The translations under genes and the position numbers were made by a program. Positions 8,364 through 64,000 of a DNA stretch of 64,000 nucleotides are shown in pieces (within the stretch, counting starts at the first letter, position 1; the number at the start of each line of letters is the position of its first letter). Where the stretch lies: contig CAXXMU010000008.1 in the NCBI GenBank assembly GCA_963667785.2, positions 32,001 to 96,000 of the forward strand, given 5' to 3'. The stretch is from Alphaproteobacteria bacterium (GTDB lineage: Bacteria; Pseudomonadota; Alphaproteobacteria; UBA828). The notes beneath the pieces are model-generated. The model was not told where the DNA came from, did not search any database, and saw only the letters and a list, made by a program, of their open reading frames with translations.

Positions 8364-9689
8364 TCAGTTGCCGTAGACATAGCCCGGAAACCACAGGGCG
8401 ATTTCCGGGAACACCATGATGATGACGAGTGCCACAATCATCACGCCGACGAAGGGAATGATGGAGCGATAAATGTCGCGCAAGGTTATTTCTGGAGGCG
8501 CCATGGCGCGCATGAGGAAGAGGTTGTAGCCGAAGGGCGGCGTCATGTAGGCGATTTGCGTGGTGATGGTGTAGAGGACGCCGTACCAGATCAGGTTGAA
8601 TCCCAACGCGTCGACGAGAGGGACATAGAGGGGGGCGACGATCACCAGCATCGCCGTGTCGTCGAGAAACGTTCCCATCACCAGGAACGAGAGCTGCATC
8701 AGCACGAGTACCATCCAGGGCGAGAGCCCCATCTGCTCGGTGAACACGTCCTCGATCGCGTGCGCGGCCCCCAGCCCGTCGAACACCGAGCCGAAGGCGA
8801 GCGCCGCCAGGATGATCCACATGAACATGCAGGTGATGCGGAGCGTGTTGCGTACCGAGTTCTCGAACACCTGCCTGGTCATGCGCCGGCGCACGATGGC
8901 GGCGAGGAAGGCGGCGAGCGCGCCGATGGCGGACGATTCGACCAGCGAGGTCGAGCCGCTGACGAAGGGCACGATCATCACCGCGTAGATGAAGAGCGGC
9001 AGCAGGCCGGCGCGGAGCAGCCGCATCTTTTCCGGCCAGGGCACGTCGCGCTCGGCCTTGGGCAGAACAGGGCCGAGACTGGGCGTGATCCAGCAGCGCA
9101 GCCAGATGTAGAGGACGAAGAGCCCGGCCATCATGAGCCCGGGGAAGATCCCCGCGAGCCAGAGCTGGCCCACGGGCTGGCGCGCGATCATGGCGTAGAG
9201 CACGAGCACCACCGAGGGCGGCACGAGGATGCCGAGCGAGCTTCCCGCCTGAATGACGCCGGTCACCATGCGCTTGTCGTAGTTGCGCTTGAGCAGCTCG
9301 GGCAGCGCGATGGTCGCGCCGATGGCCATGCCGGCGACGCTCAGCCCGTTCATCGCCGAGACCAGCACCATGAGCCCGATCGTGCCCACGGCAAGCCCGC
9401 CGGCCATGCCGCCCGTCCACACGTGGAACATGCGGTAGAGGTCGTCGGCGATCCTCGATTCCGAGAGCACGTAGCCCATGAAGATGAACATCGGCAGCGT
9501 GAGCAGCGGGTACCATTTCATGAGCTTCATGGCGGCGGCGAAGCCCAGGTCGTAACCGCCCCGGTCGCCCCAGAGGAGCAGCGCGGAAAGGACCGCGACG
9601 AAGCCGATCGCGGCGAAGACGCGCTGGCCCGTGGCCAGCATGAGCATCATCAGCGCGAACATCAGGACGGTGATCATCTCGTAGGACAT
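8364..9689 (-). CDS. dctM: TRAP transporter large permease
   Basis: SSLGILVPPSVVLVLY, YMTPPFGYNLF; highly hydrophobic. Confidence 0.92.
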   Translation of the reverse strand: MSYEMITVLMFALMMLMLATGQRVFAAIGFVAVLSALLLWGDRGGYDLGFAAAMKLMKWYPLLTLPMFIFMGYVLSESRIADDLYRMFHVWTGGMAGGLAVGTIGLMVLVSAMNGLSVAGMAIGATIALPELLKRNYDKRMVTGVIQAGSSLGILVPPSVVLVLYAMIARQPVGQLWLAGIFPGLMMAGLFVLYIWLRCWITPSLGPVLPKAERDVPWPEKMRLLRAGLLPLFIYAVMIVPFVSGSTSLVESSAIGALAAFLAAIVRRRMTRQVFENSVRNTLRITCMFMWIILAALAFGSVFDGLGAAHAIEDVFTEQMGLSPWMVLVLMQLSFLVMGTFLDDTAMLVIVAPLYVPLVDALGFNLIWYGVLYTITTQIAYMTPPFGYNLFLMRAMAPPEITLRDIYRSIIPFVGVMIVALVIIMVFPEIALWFPGYVYGN

Positions 9690-58429: not shown

Positions 58430-58457
58430 TCCGGTGCCCTGACGCGAAGGCCCGCCG

Positions 58458-59765
58458 ATGACGCCCGAACAACCCACCGCCTACCTCAACGCCCGCCTGC
58501 TGGACCCGGACAGCGGCCTCGATACCCCGGGCGCGCTGCTGGTGAAGGAGGGCGCGATCGCCGATCTCGGCCCAGAACTCTTCGCCGGCGGGGTGCCGGA
58601 CGGGATCGAGACGGTCGATTGCGGCGGCCACTGTCTCGCGCCCGGCCTCGTCGACATGCACGTTCACTTTCGCGAGCCGGGGCACGAGCACAAGGAGACC
58701 ATCGCCACCGGCGGCCTCGCGGCGGCGGCCGGCGGGGTGACCAGCGTCGCCTGCATGCCCAACACAAGGCCGGTGATCGACGACGCCGCGCTGATCGAGT
58801 TCGTGCAGCGCCGTGCGCGCGAGGCCAAGGGGGTGAAGGTCTATCCCTTCGGCGCGGTGACCAAGGGGCTGGAGGGGACGCAGCTCACCGAGATGGGGAT
58901 GCTGGCCGAGGCCGGCGCCGTGGCCTTCTCCGACGACGGCCTGCCGGTCGCCGACAGCCAGGTGATGCGGCGCGCGCTGAGCTACGCGCGGACCTTCGAC
59001 CTGATCGTGAGCCAGCACGCCGAGGACCTCTCGCTCACCGGCTGCGGCTGCATGGCAGAGGGCGAGGTCTCGACCCGGCTCGGCCTGCCGGGCATCCCCG
59101 ACGAATCGGAGATCGTGGTGGTGGAGCGCGACATCCGGCTGGTGGAGCTCACCGGCGGCCGCTACCACGTCGCCCACATCTCCACCGCCGGCGCGCTGGA
59201 GGCGGTGCGCCGGGCCAAGCGGGCGGGCCTGCCGGTGACCTGCGAGGTGGCGCCCCACCACTTCGCGCTGACCGAGCACGATGTCGGCGACTACCGCACC
59301 TTCGCCAAGATGGCGCCGCCGCTCAGGAGCGAGGCCAACCGCCGGGCGATGGTGGACGGGCTGAAGGACGGCACCATCGACGCCATCGCCAGCGACCACG
59401 CACCCCACGATCAGGAGAGCAAGCGCCTGCCGATGGAGCGTGCGGCCAACGGGGTGGTGGGGCTGGAGACGATGCTGCCGCTCTCGCTGGAGCTCTACCA
59501 TGCCGGCCATGTGCCGCTCCGCGACGTGCTGCGCCGGCTGACCTGCGCGCCTGCGGACCTGATCGGCATCGATGCGGGCAGGCTCAGGCAGGGTGCGCCC
59601 GCCGACCTCGTGCTCTTCGACCTCGACGCCCCCTGGCGCGTCGATCGCGATGTCTTCCGCAGCAAGTCGGACAACACGCCCTTCGACGGCCGCCCGGTGC
59701 AGGGCCGCGTGCTGAGGACGGTGGTGGACGGCCGCACCCTCTTCGCCGCATCGAACGGCGTCTAG
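58458..59765 (+). CDS. pyrC: Dihydroorotase
   Basis: DMHVHFREPG, CMPNT, KMAPPLR, ASDHAPH. Confidence 0.95.
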   Translation: MTPEQPTAYLNARLLDPDSGLDTPGALLVKEGAIADLGPELFAGGVPDGIETVDCGGHCLAPGLVDMHVHFREPGHEHKETIATGGLAAAAGGVTSVACMPNTRPVIDDAALIEFVQRRAREAKGVKVYPFGAVTKGLEGTQLTEMGMLAEAGAVAFSDDGLPVADSQVMRRALSYARTFDLIVSQHAEDLSLTGCGCMAEGEVSTRLGLPGIPDESEIVVVERDIRLVELTGGRYHVAHISTAGALEAVRRAKRAGLPVTCEVAPHHFALTEHDVGDYRTFAKMAPPLRSEANRRAMVDGLKDGTIDAIASDHAPHDQESKRLPMERAANGVVGLETMLPLSLELYHAGHVPLRDVLRRLTCAPADLIGIDAGRLRQGAPADLVLFDLDAPWRVDRDVFRSKSDNTPFDGRPVQGRVLRTVVDGRTLFAASNGV

Positions 59766-59783
59766 CCGGGGGAGGGGGCCGCC

Positions 59784-61007
59784 ATCGTCACCGCCGCCAT
59801 CGCCGCCATCGCCACCGCCTGCCTCCGCCGACTGCCGCCGGAGACGGCACACGGCACGGCGCTCGCCCTGCTCGGGCGCGGTTGGCTGCCGCCGCCGGAG
59901 CCGCCCGCGCCGGCCCTGGCGACGAACGTCTGGGGGCTGCGCTTCCCGACGCCGGTGGGACTCGCCGCCGGCTTCGACAAGGACGTGCGCTGCCCGGACG
60001 GCGCGGCTGCGCTGGGTTTCGGCTTCGGCGAGCTCGGCACGGTGACGCCCCGGCCGCAGCCGGGCAATCCCCGGCCGCGCCTCTTCCGGCTCAGGCGGGA
60101 GCGCGCGCTGATCAACCGGATGGGCTTCAACAGCGCCGGCCTCGACGTGGTCGCGCGTCGGCTGGAGCGTCGGCGCGCGGAGGGGGCGGCCGTCGCCTGC
60201 CCGCTCGGGGTCAATATCGGCGTTAACCGCGACAGCGCGGAGCCTGCCCGCGACTACGCCGCCGGCCTCGCGCGCGTGGCAGCGCTCGCCGACTACGTGG
60301 CGGTGAATGTCTCCTCGCCCAACACGCCGGGCTTGCGCGCCTGGCAGGAGGGCGACGCGCTCCACCGCCTGCTGGCTGCGCTGGCCGATACCTGCGCCCG
60401 CCTCGACCCCGCGCCGCCCGTCCTGCTCAAGCTCGCGCCGGAGATCGACGACGCGGCGCTTGCGGCGCTGCTCGACTCCGCCCGCGACGCGCCCGTCGCC
60501 GGGCTGATCCTCACCAACACGACGACCACGCGCCCGCCCGGCCTCGCCTCGCGCCGGCGGGGAGAGGCGGGCGGCCTCAGCGGTCCGCCGCTCGCACCGC
60601 GCGCGCTCGCGGTTCTGCGCAGCGCCTGGGCGCTGAGCGACGGCCGCCTGCCGCTGATCGGGGTTGGCGGGATCGATTCGGCCGACGCCGCCTACGCCCG
60701 CATCCGCGCCGGCGCGAGCCTGGTGCAGCTCTACACCGCGCTCGCCTATCGCGGGCCGGGCCTGGTCACCGAGATCACGCGGGGGCTCGCCCGGCTGCTG
60801 GCGGCGGACGGCTTCGCTTGCGTGGCGGACGCCGTCGGTGCCGATCACCGCTCCCCGCCTTCGCGCGCTCAGGATGCAGCGGCGATCTCTCCGGCGATGG
60901 CACGCGCCGCGGCGAGCGGATCGGGCGCCTGCGTTATGGGGCGGCCGACGACCAGCGCCGTCGCGCCGGCGCGCGCCGCATCGGCGGGCGTCGCCACCCG
61001 CGCCTGA
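59784..61007 (+). CDS. pyrD: Quinone-dependent dihydroorotate dehydrogenase (class 2); start codon uncertain
   Basis: LPPETAH, GLAAGFDK, INRMGFN, NVSSPNTPGLR, GGLSG, GVGGI; the conserved N-terminus lies upstream of the first GTG (59955), so the start is tentatively placed at ATC 59784. Confidence 0.88.
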   Translation: MVTAAIAAIATACLRRLPPETAHGTALALLGRGWLPPPEPPAPALATNVWGLRFPTPVGLAAGFDKDVRCPDGAAALGFGFGELGTVTPRPQPGNPRPRLFRLRRERALINRMGFNSAGLDVVARRLERRRAEGAAVACPLGVNIGVNRDSAEPARDYAAGLARVAALADYVAVNVSSPNTPGLRAWQEGDALHRLLAALADTCARLDPAPPVLLKLAPEIDDAALAALLDSARDAPVAGLILTNTTTTRPPGLASRRRGEAGGLSGPPLAPRALAVLRSAWALSDGRLPLIGVGGIDSADAAYARIRAGASLVQLYTALAYRGPGLVTEITRGLARLLAADGFACVADAVGADHRSPPSRAQDAAAISPAMARAAASGSGACVMGRPTTSAVAPARAASAGVATRA

Positions 61008-61594
61008 TCGGCCCTGGCGCTGCCGCTCCCGCCTGCGGGACGGATGCCGGGCACGACGATGGCGAAGTCCGGGCCGTGCTCGGCGCGGAGCGCGGCCACC
61101 TCCTGCGGGCTCGCGATCACGCCTGCGAGCCCCGCTTCGCGCGCGAGCGCGGCGAGGCGCAGCACCTGCGCGCCGGCTGGGCCGGCGATGCCCTGGTGTG
61201 CCAGCGCGGCGTCGTCGAGGCTGGTGAGCACGGTGACGCCGAGCAGGCCGGGCGGTGCGGTGCCTTGGCGCGCGGCTTCCTCCTCGCCCGCCTCGCGCGC
61301 CGCCCGCATCATGGCGAGCCCGCCGGCGGCGTGGATGGTGAGGTAGTGCGGCGCGAGCGCCACCACGCTCCGCACCGCGCCGGCGACGGTGTTCGGGATG
61401 TCGTGGAGCTTGAGGTCGAGGAAGAGCGGCCTTCCCGCCGCGCCCACGGCGGCGACGCCTGAGGGCCCGTGGGCGCAGAAATACTCGAGGCCGAGCTTGA
61501 GGCCGTCCACCGCCGGCGCGAGCAGGCCCGCCAGCCGCTCGACCTCGGGCCGGTCGCGCGCATCGAGGGCGCAGTAGAGGGAGACGTTCGGCAT
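60869..61594 (-). CDS. pyrF: Orotidine-5'-phosphate decarboxylase
   Basis: FLDLKLHDIPNTV, VTVLTS, PGIRP, VVGRPIT. Confidence 0.96.
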   Translation of the reverse strand: MPNVSLYCALDARDRPEVERLAGLLAPAVDGLKLGLEYFCAHGPSGVAAVGAAGRPLFLDLKLHDIPNTVAGAVRSVVALAPHYLTIHAAGGLAMMRAAREAGEEEAARQGTAPPGLLGVTVLTSLDDAALAHQGIAGPAGAQVLRLAALAREAGLAGVIASPQEVAALRAEHGPDFAIVVPGIRPAGGSGSARADQARVATPADAARAGATALVVGRPITQAPDPLAAARAIAGEIAAAS

Positions 61595-61674
61595 CAGCGT
61601 TCCATCCGGGCCGGGTTAGTCTACCCTCGGGTGCGGCGCGGGACGACCGGGCGGCCGAGGTGCGGAGGGCGGCG

Positions 61675-62313
61675 GTGAGCGGGACGGCAGAGGAGATCGC
61701 GGCGGCCCTGCTCGACGCGGATGCGCTGCTGGTGCGTCCCGAAGCGCCGTTCCGGCTTACCTCGGGGCTCCGCGCGCCGTTCTACATCAACTGCCGGCTG
61801 ATCCTGTCGCGGCCCGACGCCCGCGCCAGGGCCGCGGCGGCGCTGGCGGATACCGTGCCGATGTCGGCCACCACGGTCATCGCCGGCGGGGTCACCGCGG
61901 GCGTGCCCTTCGCCACCCTCGTCGCCGAGCGCCTCGGGCTGCCGCTGGTCTATGTCCGGGCTGAGGCCAAGGCGCACGGCACCGCCGGCCGCATCGAGGG
62001 CGGCGCGGTCGCCGGCGAGCGCGTCCTCCTGATCGAGGACCTGATCTCGACCGCCGGCAGCATCCTCGCCTTCACCCGCACCCTGCGCGAGGCGGGCGCG
62101 GCGGTGGACGGCGTCAGCGTGCTGTTCTCGCGCGCTGGCGCGTCGGCGCAAGCCGCGCTGGAGGAGGCGGGCCTCGCATTCACCGCCGTCTGCGATCTCG
62201 ACACGCTGCTCCAGGTGGCGCTCGCCGAAGGGCGCATCGACGAGGCAGCGCTCGGCGAGGTCCGGGCCTTCCTCGCCGACCCCGAGGGCTGGTCCGCCGC
62301 CCACGACTCCTAG
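61675..62313 (+). CDS. pyrE: Orotate phosphoribosyltransferase
   Basis: FRLTSG...FYINCR, KAHG, LIEDLISTAGS PRPP motif; RBS GGAGG. Confidence 0.9.
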   Translation: MSGTAEEIAAALLDADALLVRPEAPFRLTSGLRAPFYINCRLILSRPDARARAAAALADTVPMSATTVIAGGVTAGVPFATLVAERLGLPLVYVRAEAKAHGTAGRIEGGAVAGERVLLIEDLISTAGSILAFTRTLREAGAAVDGVSVLFSRAGASAQAALEEAGLAFTAVCDLDTLLQVALAEGRIDEAALGEVRAFLADPEGWSAAHDS

Positions 62314-62329
62314 AGAGAGTCCGTCCGTC

Positions 62330-63661
62330 TCAAAAATCGATGGCGCGGCCCTTGCGCTCCCAGTCGCCGTAGCGAGTCGGTTCCGGCCCCGCCGGGCCGC
62401 CCGTCTCGGGGATGGATTCCAGTCTGTTTTCGGGGCCATTCCCTGATTGAGGGACCGTCGCAACCTCTGCGAGCTTCGGGGCTGTCTTGCCGGCCCGTGC
62501 CAGAACGTCCGGTCCTATCGAGGCGATGTCGGCGAGACCGCAGAGCCCCATGGCGAGGTCGAGCTCGCGGCGGAGGATGTCGAAGGCGTGGGCGACGCCC
62601 GCTTCGCCCGCGACCGCCAGCCCCCAGAACTGCGCCCGGCCGATGGTGCAGCAGTCTGCGCCCAGCGCCAGCGCCTTGACCATGTGGGTGCCCCGCCTGA
62701 TCCCGCCGTCGAGCAGCACGGCAGCGCGGCCCGCCACAGCCTCCGCCACGCGGGGCAGCGCGTCGAGCGCGCTCGCGGCGCCGTCGAGCTGGCGGCCGCC
62801 GTGATTGGAGACGAACATCCCGTCCACGCCGTTTGCCACCGCCTCGGCAGCATCGGCGGGGTGGAGCACGCCCTTGAGCAGCAGCGGTCCCTTCCAGACG
62901 GCTCGCAACGCCGCGACGTCGTCCCACTGCATGCCCTGGTCGGGCAGCGCCAGCATGCGGTGGTGGAGGGTGGTGAGGTCGTTGGCGCCGCCGGGCCTGC
63001 GGTAGTTGCCGAAGGTAATGTTCGGAATGGTGCGCCGCATCCGCAGCAGCCAGCGCACCTTGGTCGCCATGTTGGCAATCTCGCCGGCGGAAAACCGGGG
63101 CGGGATGACGAATCCGTTGCGGATGTCGCGTTCGCGGTTGCCGAGCATCTGGGTGTCGATGGTGACCACCAGCGCCTCGTAGCCGGCAGCCGCCGCCCGC
63201 GCCGCCATCTCGTGGGTGAGTCCGCGGTCCGTGTAGATGTAGGTCTGGAACCAGCGCGGCGAGAGGCCGGTCTCGGCCAGCTCTTCGAGGGTGCAGACCG
63301 AGCCGTGGCTGAGGCAGTAGATCGAGCCTGCCTTGGTCGCCGCCCGTGCCGAAGCGGCTTCGCCGTTCGGCCAGAGCAGCCCGGCCAGTCCGGTCGGCGG
63401 AACGATGAGCGGCATGGAGAGCCGCCGGCCGAAGAGCGTGGTCGAGAGGTCGCGGCTCGCCGAGCCGCCGATGGGGCGCGGATAGAGGGCCACGTCATCG
63501 AAGGCGGAGACGTTCCGCCGCAGCGTGTGCTCGTCGCCCGCGCCGCCGTCCACGAAATCGAACACCGCGCGCGGCAGCACCCGCCGGGCCTCGGCCCGGA
63601 GCGCCTCGATGTTGTAGGCCCGCCGCTTCCAGCGGGGCATGCGCTCGCTCGCCATCGTCAT
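62330..63661 (-). CDS. FMN-dependent alpha-hydroxy-acid dehydrogenase fused to a C-terminal DUF1674/SDHAF4 domain
   Basis: FDFVDGGAGDE, RERD, LLKG, SNHGGRQLD, DGGIRRG; C-terminus GGPAGPEPTRYGDWERKGRAIDF. Confidence 0.88.
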   Translation of the reverse strand: MTMASERMPRWKRRAYNIEALRAEARRVLPRAVFDFVDGGAGDEHTLRRNVSAFDDVALYPRPIGGSASRDLSTTLFGRRLSMPLIVPPTGLAGLLWPNGEAASARAATKAGSIYCLSHGSVCTLEELAETGLSPRWFQTYIYTDRGLTHEMAARAAAAGYEALVVTIDTQMLGNRERDIRNGFVIPPRFSAGEIANMATKVRWLLRMRRTIPNITFGNYRRPGGANDLTTLHHRMLALPDQGMQWDDVAALRAVWKGPLLLKGVLHPADAAEAVANGVDGMFVSNHGGRQLDGAASALDALPRVAEAVAGRAAVLLDGGIRRGTHMVKALALGADCCTIGRAQFWGLAVAGEAGVAHAFDILRRELDLAMGLCGLADIASIGPDVLARAGKTAPKLAEVATVPQSGNGPENRLESIPETGGPAGPEPTRYGDWERKGRAIDF

Positions 63662-63808
63662 CCCCCGTAGGGAGGTGCGCCAGTATAGGCGGCCGGGCCT
63701 CTGCGCGCATGGGCGCCGGGGCTCGCTTGACCCGTACGGGTGCCGGTAAGACACTGCCCCGCCGCCGGCAACCGATGTCGGCGGACGGACAATCACGCGG
63801 TGCGGCCC

Positions 63809-64000
63809 ATGAAGCTGATCGGCGTCGACGTCGGCGGCACCTTCACCGACCTCATCATCACCGACAGCGAGACGCGCGAGAGCGCGATCCACAAGGTGCC
63901 CACGACCCCGGACGACCCCTCCGACGGCGCCGCGGCGGGCATCGCCCAGCTCTGCGAGCGCAGCGGCACGGCGCCCGGATCCATCGCCCACGTCTTCCAC
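63809..64000 (+). CDS. Hydantoinase/oxoprolinase family protein (3' truncated by window)
   Basis: [15 protein letters not shown]...[11 protein letters not shown]. Confidence 0.88.

Follow-up and report, generated by a model that had tools for sequence, protein, structure and literature searches.

An FMN-dependent alpha-hydroxy-acid dehydrogenase with a conserved C-terminal SDHAF4/DUF1674 tail in an alphaproteobacterial genus

The stretch of DNA analysed here (hereafter the window) comprises 64,000 nucleotides of an alphaproteobacterial genome of the UBA828 lineage (GenBank assembly GCA_963667785.2, contig CAXXMU010000008.1, positions 32,001 to 96,000 of the forward strand), and it contains a gene in which an alpha-hydroxy-acid dehydrogenase dependent on flavin mononucleotide (FMN) runs in frame into a sequence of the DUF1674/SDHAF4 family, named for an assembly factor of the flavoprotein of complex II (succinate dehydrogenase, SDH). 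The gene is a single uninterrupted open reading frame (ORF) on the reverse strand (62330..63661, stop codon included), running from an ATG at 63661 to a TGA at 62330..62332 and encoding 443 residues. Two Pfam domains score above their cut-offs within it. FMN_dh (PF01070) covers residues 25-388 (62498..63589, reverse strand; 431.8 bits, cut-off 24.9, E 2.4e-129; positions 1-349 of the 350 in the profile) and corresponds to the TIM barrel of an FMN-dependent dehydrogenase or oxidase, which is recovered by AlphaFold2 (AF2) and Foldseek as well. DUF1674 (PF07896) covers residues 415-443 (52.6 bits, cut-off 23.5, E 5.9e-14; positions 22-50 of the 50 in the profile). Between barrel and motif lies a spacer of about 27-30 residues (389/392-418), most of it a variable and putatively disordered linker in which A, G, P, E and T are abundant (residues 392-418; 62408..62488, reverse strand). 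The last 25 residues (419-443; 62333..62407, reverse strand) form the SDHAF4/DUF1674 tail and read ETGGPAGPEPTRYGDWERKGRAIDF; the TGA follows F443 directly, making D442-F443 the true and free C-terminus. An earlier note on this DNA, written from the letters alone, had described a complete dehydrogenase in frame with this motif, the same ending and a linker of ~30 residues, and our analysis bears out that description.

The translation probably starts at the second ATG, at 63655, which would give a protein of 441 residues (M-A-S-E-R...), because the N-termini of orthologues read M-A-S/T-E and a GGGGGA stretch lies 5 nucleotides upstream of this codon. Long spurious ORFs cover the same DNA (61621-62463, reverse strand, 280 residues; 62447-63670, forward strand, 407 residues), and the gene is surrounded by a stop-free frame of 1875 residues, as is typical of very GC-rich DNA. 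Such spurious frames explain the one opening with MAPKTDWNPS, whose ATG at 62439 the earlier note had suggested to be the displaced start of an originally separate small gene. The +1 frame read from this ATG does not contain the motif, and the codon occurs in just 1 of 19 orthologous sequences, the others reading T-A-P-K or similar, so this proposal had to be abandoned.

We searched 21 genomes of the genus and found an orthologue in every one. In 18 of them the fusion is full length, extending from query residue 1 or 3 to residue 443 without stops, and several of these genomes are assembled in 1-4 contigs. The matches in the other three genomes are shorter, covering residues 4-422 only in G011 and residues 5-399/402 only in G015 and G016, while one fused genome (G001) carries two fused-type copies. 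The genome from which the window derives (98% complete, in 14 contigs) contains a single full FMN_dh gene and a single DUF1674 match above cut-off, both within the fusion ORF; E. coli, by comparison, has no DUF1674. The search for a second, separate DUF1674 gene in this genome returned only two matches under the cut-off (E 0.18 and 0.45), and apart from the two fused-type copies of G001 there is no second DUF1674 copy above cut-off in any fused genome. In a protein search, 31 clusters among the best 120 had both Pfam domains, at 75-91% identity; below ~74% identity these 120 clusters contain plain FMN_dh proteins of 385-419 residues. At the nucleotide level we assembled a set of 19 distinct fused sequences (window included; two further loci are identical duplicates), all of which end in E[TVI]GGPAGPEPTRYGDWERKGRA[IV]DF.

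Nei-Gojobori counts over all pairs of these 19 sequences separate the three parts of the protein by the proportions of synonymous (pS) and nonsynonymous (pN) differences. The 25 codons of the tail have a pS of 0.340 and a pN of 0.021 (pN/pS 0.06), compared with 0.279 and 0.078 for the FMN_dh domain (pN/pS 0.28) and 0.460 and 0.252 for the linker (pN/pS 0.55). Synonymous variation is found at 16 of the 25 tail codons and amino acid variation at 2. Among the orthologues the linker is 27 to 37 residues long, and all of its indels are in frame. Together, the pattern in the tail codons and the in-frame indels show that the tail is translated in the frame of the fusion and that no other part of the protein is as constrained.

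The same alignment bears on whether the tail acts while attached. Proteolysis of the linker, or an internal start, could yield a free SDHAF4 peptide alongside an ordinary dehydrogenase, and a linker this long, disordered and fast-evolving should be accessible to proteases. Small stand-alone DUF1674 proteins are moreover the norm: a representative search returned 3425 DUF1674 proteins at E <=0.001, and among the best 150 of these, 148 are no longer than 121 residues and 149 end exactly at the motif. However, neither the window nor locus L126 offers an ATG, GTG or TTG in frame within the 45 codons that precede the tail, which excludes a conserved internal start (GTG codons do precede the tail in other orthologues, at positions that differ), and the aligned linkers reveal no conserved motif for cleavage. 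We therefore consider release of the peptide improbable.

To place the origin of the fusion, a maximum-likelihood tree was built from the dehydrogenase domain only, with the tails removed (53 rows, midpoint rooting; cluster P0038 was excluded as frameshifted). All 27 fused rows form one clade with an ultrafast bootstrap value (UFboot) of 100 and a value of 99 in the Shimodaira-Hasegawa-like approximate likelihood ratio test (SH-aLRT), and this clade was recovered in every one of the 200 bootstrap trees. G011, G015, G016 and three unfused metagenomic proteins, P0036, P0041 and P0084, make up the sister clade. The fusion is old, conserved, of single origin and under selection, and it is no accident. 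The earlier note had kept open a recent accidental fusion. Two separate genes could in principle have been joined by a sequencing or assembly indel or by a fresh mutation, and indels do occur in assemblies of this GC-rich stretch, as five frameshifted clusters of relatives described below illustrate. This explanation is effectively refuted, since the fused rows are monophyletic, the same in-frame fusion recurs across the genus, in 18 of the 21 genomes and among them several in few contigs, and the 19 distinct sequences keep their frame through several indels and differing linker lengths. Public sequencing runs point the same way. A 367-nucleotide contig of run X1, which may be the source sample, covers 62345-62711 without a single difference, and a contig of run X3 has 118 nucleotides in place of 85 nucleotides of the linker, a difference of 33 nucleotides that stays in frame.

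Many of the public runs that contain part of the gene are labelled as sponge metagenomes, and the contigs of X3 come from relatives with ~90-95% likeness. Contigs from a metatranscriptome, X22, match parts of 62555-63564 with 88-95% likeness and reach a depth of 5.9-13.5 over 62308-62415; these are contigs of relatives rather than reads and possibly reflect DNA carry-over, and they are no proof of expression. That X3 and X22 leave 62416-62469 uncovered is a consequence of the variable linker and has no further meaning.

The unfused members of the sister clade suggest how the fusion may have come about. In G011, an FMN_dh gene encoding 416 residues (L132:7793-9043) is followed, after a gap of 88 nucleotides, by a DUF1674 gene of 70 residues on the same strand (9132-9344), which has an N-terminal region of its own and matches positions 7-50 of the Pfam profile. 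We propose that the ancestor of the genus had such a small DUF1674 gene directly downstream of the dehydrogenase gene, as in G011, that a single deletion then took out the stop codon together with the spacer and the variable N-terminal portion of DUF1674, giving rise to the fusion in one lineage, and that the small gene was lost in another. The order in which the genes were adjacent first and fused later is inferred, and it is favoured because the G011 gene keeps what looks like the ancestral, full-length form. The tail-less dehydrogenase genes of the two remaining genomes, G015 and G016 (L128:1507-2685, reverse strand, and L129), provide a natural knock-out for comparison.

The tail is identical to the C-terminus of human SDHAF4 (8dyd_C) at 22 of 25 positions and aligns to human residues 82-108 in phmmer; it also matches PDB entry 2K5K, a 70-residue bacterial "uncharacterized protein RhR2". 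Counted from the phmmer alignment, E419, E427, D442 and F443 correspond to human E84, E92, D107 and F108, and the equivalents of all four are invariant in the 19 distinct fused sequences. According to the parts of the human SDHAF4 study that describe its binding to SDHA (PMC10784507), D107 and F108 occupy the dicarboxylate site of SDHA beside the flavin adenine dinucleotide (FAD), E84 and E92 are acidic residues of the first contact with SDHA, and D107/F108 variants as well as E84N/E92N impaired either binding or the displacement of SDHAF2. The same parts of that study describe the C-terminal D-F as strictly conserved, alpha- and gamma-proteobacterial homologues included, and the N-terminal part as showing no sequence similarity among SDHAF4 homologues (PMC10784507). 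Human SDHAF4 (8DYD, 8DYE) and the tail of the fusion thus both end their polypeptide, and they share the four residues tested by mutagenesis. They differ in that SDHAF4 is a free protein of 50-120 residues, whereas here the motif is preceded by an enzyme of 390 residues, which is not what would be expected of a small stand-alone DUF1674 protein (~50-120 residues); the tail of the 443-residue protein matches only profile positions 22-50 of 50, with the linker standing in place of the N-terminal half.

In the AF2 monomer model, residues 391-443 have a predicted local distance difference test score (pLDDT) of ~32, show no secondary structure and are not docked on their own barrel. This predicted disorder would match a free, disordered SDHAF4-like peptide: the sections on the human protein report that isolated SDHAF4 is fully disordered and that ordering on SDHA is limited to residues 75-108 or 66-108 (PMC10784507). 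They also describe clashes of bound SDHAF4 with the positions of SDHAF2 and of SDHB (PMC10784507). As SDHAF4 occupies a surface that SDHB takes up later, the tail would be expected to bind unassembled SdhA rather than the working complex II. The prospective client is present in the genome of the window, which encodes both SdhA (943 bits, contig C5), matching human SDHA over its full length (E 2e-242), and SdhE, the homologue of SDHAF2. A complex prediction with SdhA, residues 394-443 and FAD gave a score of 0.01 against a mark of 0.32; no controls were folded, and the result counts neither for nor against binding.

The N-terminal part of the protein appears to be an intact enzyme. The barrel is predicted with confidence (predicted template modelling score, pTM, 0.81), and Foldseek assigns it a probability of 1.00 to HAO1, glycolate oxidase and mandelate dehydrogenase (target-normalised template modelling score, TMt, 0.82-0.92; identity 35-38%), with likeness to mandelate oxidase as well. 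The best full-length structural match is a monotopic membrane (S)-mandelate dehydrogenase (6bfg_A), with a query-normalised score (TMq) of 0.76, compared with 0.65-0.71 for the other chains listed by Foldseek (oxidases and soluble forms of mandelate dehydrogenase). The motif SNHGGRQLD together with H287, R290, K263, D169 and Y161 is invariant in an alignment of 57 rows (A1), and SNHGGRQL aligns with lactate oxidase; by analogy with the family, these residues are probably the catalytic His and Arg, the FMN-stabilising Lys and the active-site Asp and Tyr. The full-length FMN_dh match, the His/Arg motif SNHGGRQ and the preceding Lys are shared with 6BFG, LldD and hydroxyacid oxidase 1/glycolate oxidase, and the C-terminal extension of 55 residues sets the protein apart from these solved FMN_dh enzymes. 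The score lies below the cut-off of every NCBIfam model matched (NF033901, the LldD model: 288 bits against 550; PRK11197: 320.6 against 376), for which reason an LldD-type name is not warranted, and the name L-lactate dehydrogenase should not be applied to the barrel. The segment of loop 4 (residues 188-245; ~62927-63100 of the window) is long and helical in the model, with a pLDDT of 56-73, and together with the 6bfg_A match it hints at a membrane association of the enzyme. There is precedent for an FMN_dh barrel joined to a second module in flavocytochrome b2, the yeast L-lactate dehydrogenase (chains of 511 residues), where a folded haem domain at the N-terminus serves as the extra module and accepts the electrons. 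The second module of the fusion described here is instead a disordered peptide at the C-terminus, and its known role concerns a different enzyme.

A flavin site on the same polypeptide could also offer the tail a different target. The Asp-Phe carboxylate could mimic an alpha-hydroxy acid and plug the FMN site of its own or of a neighbouring subunit, in which case it would no longer serve SdhA. The FMN_dh active site binds carboxylate through a conserved Arg, and the linker is long enough to reach it. In the described parts of the human complex, the terminal Asp of SDHAF4 likewise imitates a dicarboxylate in the active site of a flavoenzyme (PMC10784507). The AF2 monomer, however, leaves residues 391-443 undocked, and the identity to human SDHAF4 preserves the equivalents of E84 and E92, which contact SDHA far from its active site and which a new target would not need. 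The same tail is furthermore found on proteins without any such site, for example on a Wzy_C membrane protein. We hold such autoinhibition to be very improbable.

Fusions of DUF1674 are not confined to this enzyme. Using a stand-alone DUF1674 sequence as query, we retrieved 70 proteins of at least 124 residues, and precomputed domains identified among them 12 clusters of shikimate dehydrogenase, 2 of glutathione S-transferase (GST) and 2 of Wzy_C. Pfam scans were carried out on seven proteins (P0130, P0175, P0139, P0152, P0180, P0138 and P0191) and two loci (L094:1285-2013 and L078:191-1684, both on the forward strand), and in all nine DUF1674 forms the extreme C-terminus after another domain. 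GST precedes it in P0130, P0175 and L094 (242-278 residues), a membrane protein of the Wzy_C/O-antigen-ligase type in P0139, P0152 and L078 (464-497 residues), and the shikimate dehydrogenase AroE in P0180 and P0138 (~300-350 residues). These proteobacterial proteins share with the fusion of the window the same extreme C-terminal tail behind a short, low-complexity linker; the carriers are unrelated and the events independent. Judging from these architectures, it appears that the small DUF1674 gene has been captured by an upstream gene several times, and that its free C-terminus has always been respected.

Stand-alone and fused proteins have a common C-terminal core, GGxxGPEPxR[YF]GDWExKGxxIDF. 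The stand-alone bacterial proteins, such as 2K5K and that of G011, are found in the same class of bacteria as separate genes with start codons of their own, and DUF1674 is a small separate gene in six loci that we inspected from other genera. In the three of these loci that belong to the same family its neighbours are presumably rsmB or htpX, as far as can be recognised from their sequences, and not FMN_dh. Six stand-alone loci (L014, L015, L018, L025, L028 and L032) depart from the motif pattern and have open frames of 52-138 residues. An aroE gene was found beside none of the stand-alone DUF1674 genes in 80 loci.

The reading that we favour, with a probability of roughly 0.6, is that the protein is bifunctional, its tail still serving as the only SDHAF4 of the cell for SdhA and the enzyme being a tolerated and probably incidental carrier. 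The N-terminal 390 residues would be an intact FMN-dependent alpha-hydroxy-acid dehydrogenase, possibly associated with the membrane like mandelate dehydrogenase or LldD, and the last 25 residues, on a disordered linker of 27-37 residues, would constitute a complete and functional SDHAF4 core. By homology with human SDHAF4, the tail would bind flavinylated, unassembled SdhA, its terminal Asp-Phe carboxylate end would enter the dicarboxylate site next to the FAD, and it would help to release SdhE and shield the flavin until SdhB docks. The fusion may be tolerated because only the C-terminal segment of SDHAF4 orders on SdhA, a segment that would need a free C-terminus and not a free N-terminus. 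The partner looks incidental because DUF1674 is also C-terminal on GST, Wzy_C and AroE.

Several observations weigh against a tail that acts as an SDHAF4 on an incidental carrier. G015 and G016, both 100% complete, lack any DUF1674; their dehydrogenase ends after the barrel, and they keep SdhA and SdhE, so the function of the tail would seem to be dispensable in a close genetic background. Relatives of the FMN_dh enzyme are usually oligomers, and a carrier of such bulk could hinder the hand-over of SdhA to SdhB. Five clusters of close relatives with 1-2 members each (P0015, P0016, P0017, P0038 and P0039) carry a frameshift within the linker or immediately ahead of it and have lost the motif. 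They run on in the wrong frame for more than 100 residues, giving "proteins" of 458-581 residues annotated as FMN_dh only, and they may be assembly errors or indels or else represent real pseudogenisation. The disordered N-terminus of SDHAF4, which here is replaced by the linker and an enzyme of ~43 kDa, is also not irrelevant, as the binding experiments described for the human protein include an N-terminally truncated SDHAF4 that bound SDHA-SDHAF2 less well than the full-length form (PMC10784507). Lastly, a real functional link between the two genes would also be expected to produce the adjacency seen in G011 and so long a retention of the fusion.

Such a link could mean that the fusion exists specifically to bring the dehydrogenase and SdhA together. 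In one version, a monotopic, quinone-reducing dehydrogenase would put the tail at the membrane where SdhA meets SdhB/C/D; in another, the supply of the assembly factor would be tied to the expression of a respiratory hydroxy-acid dehydrogenase. LldD and mandelate dehydrogenase are, like SDH, flavoproteins that feed the quinone pool, and this idea is in keeping with the full-length structural match to the monotopic membrane protein 6bfg_A. It also agrees with the two genes being same-strand neighbours in the unfused G011, and with a fusion that is kept down to ~75% protein identity with the tail as its most constrained part. The pairing is moreover peculiar to the genus and kept there: among 76 stand-alone DUF1674 loci from other Proteobacteria (flanks up to 6 kb), none has an FMN_dh gene in its flank. 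On the other side, the same tail occurs in other lineages on unrelated carriers (GST, Wzy_C and AroE), the dehydrogenase persists in G015 and G016 although these genomes have no DUF1674, the fused gene has no conserved operon partner, and the membrane association amounts to structural resemblance. The clash with the SDHB position described for human SDHAF4 also means that the tail could not tether the enzyme to the working complex II (PMC10784507). Specific coupling, including the link of hydroxy-acid oxidation to complex II assembly or electron entry that the earlier note suggested, is possible but, in our judgement, doubtful.

A bolder variant would make the dehydrogenase, as an oligomeric and membrane-associated enzyme, a platform that displays several tails at the membrane surface, captures freshly flavinylated SdhA there and hands it to SdhB/C/D. 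In this genus a second flavoenzyme that reduces quinone would then organise the assembly of complex II in space and be regulated together with it, and bacteria more generally would repeatedly anchor the SDHAF4 peptide to carriers, including the integral membrane protein Wzy_C, in order to control the site of SdhA maturation. It is intriguing to consider, and we think it quite unlikely.

The genomic neighbourhood of the fused gene is partly conserved. The gene lies between a divergent pair of hydantoinase/oxoprolinase A and B genes and a set of pyrimidine genes with a convergent phosphoribosyltransferase. In the window, the pyrimidine-biosynthesis side (58443-62313) comprises a dihydroorotase-like amidohydrolase, a dihydroorotate dehydrogenase, an orotidine monophosphate (OMP) decarboxylase on the opposite strand and the convergent phosphoribosyltransferase, while the divergent hydantoinase/oxoprolinase pair lies beyond the window on the same contig (G000:C8; L131:232-4179). 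Pyrimidine genes are found near the fused gene in all four of the other fused loci compared (L041-L043 and L126); the phosphoribosyltransferase recurs in three other fused genomes (L042, L043 and L126), and hydantoinase A in two (L042 and L126). This pyrimidine/hydantoinase context was not seen in G011 or G016. The divergent neighbour upstream of the G011 dehydrogenase is an EVE-domain gene by Pfam, and we take the corresponding G016 gene, judged from its N-terminal sequence, to be the same; downstream of the G016 dehydrogenase is presumably a miaB-like gene, recognised from its sequence. The neighbours of the fused, G011 and G016 genes give no hint of the substrate. A scan of 62100-64000 for promoters and terminators revealed no promoter-like sites, and one terminator-like site inside the coding region, no more than in shuffles, so that the scan says little in DNA this rich in GC.

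What is described here joins two known families in an architecture that is recurrent yet previously undescribed. A full-text literature search found no published description of a natural SDHAF4/DUF1674 fusion. The earlier note's statement that it knew of no described fusion of this kind stands as far as the literature goes; such proteins can already be found in public databases, where they bear automatic names such as the NCBI name "DUF1674 domain-containing protein" of P0027. The "fused" SDHAF4 that appears in the described experiments of PMC10784507 refers to MBP constructs, and a review (PMC10238741) mentions few bacterial homologues of SDHAF4, from alpha- and gamma-proteobacteria that do not serve as models. 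The finding also cautions against trusting automatic annotation, as "DUF1674 domain-containing protein" and "alpha-hydroxy-acid oxidase" each hide half of the protein.

SDHAF4 is the least understood assembly factor of the complex II flavoprotein, and natural fusions such as these indicate that its working part is the C-terminal ~25 residues with a free carboxyl end. A large N-terminal cargo is compatible with long-term purifying selection on this segment in genomes that have no other copy. With the fused, adjacent and absent states all represented within one genus, these bacteria provide a tractable system for the role of SDHAF4 on SdhA. If it were true that the carrier matters, the fusion would point to spatial control of complex II assembly in bacteria.

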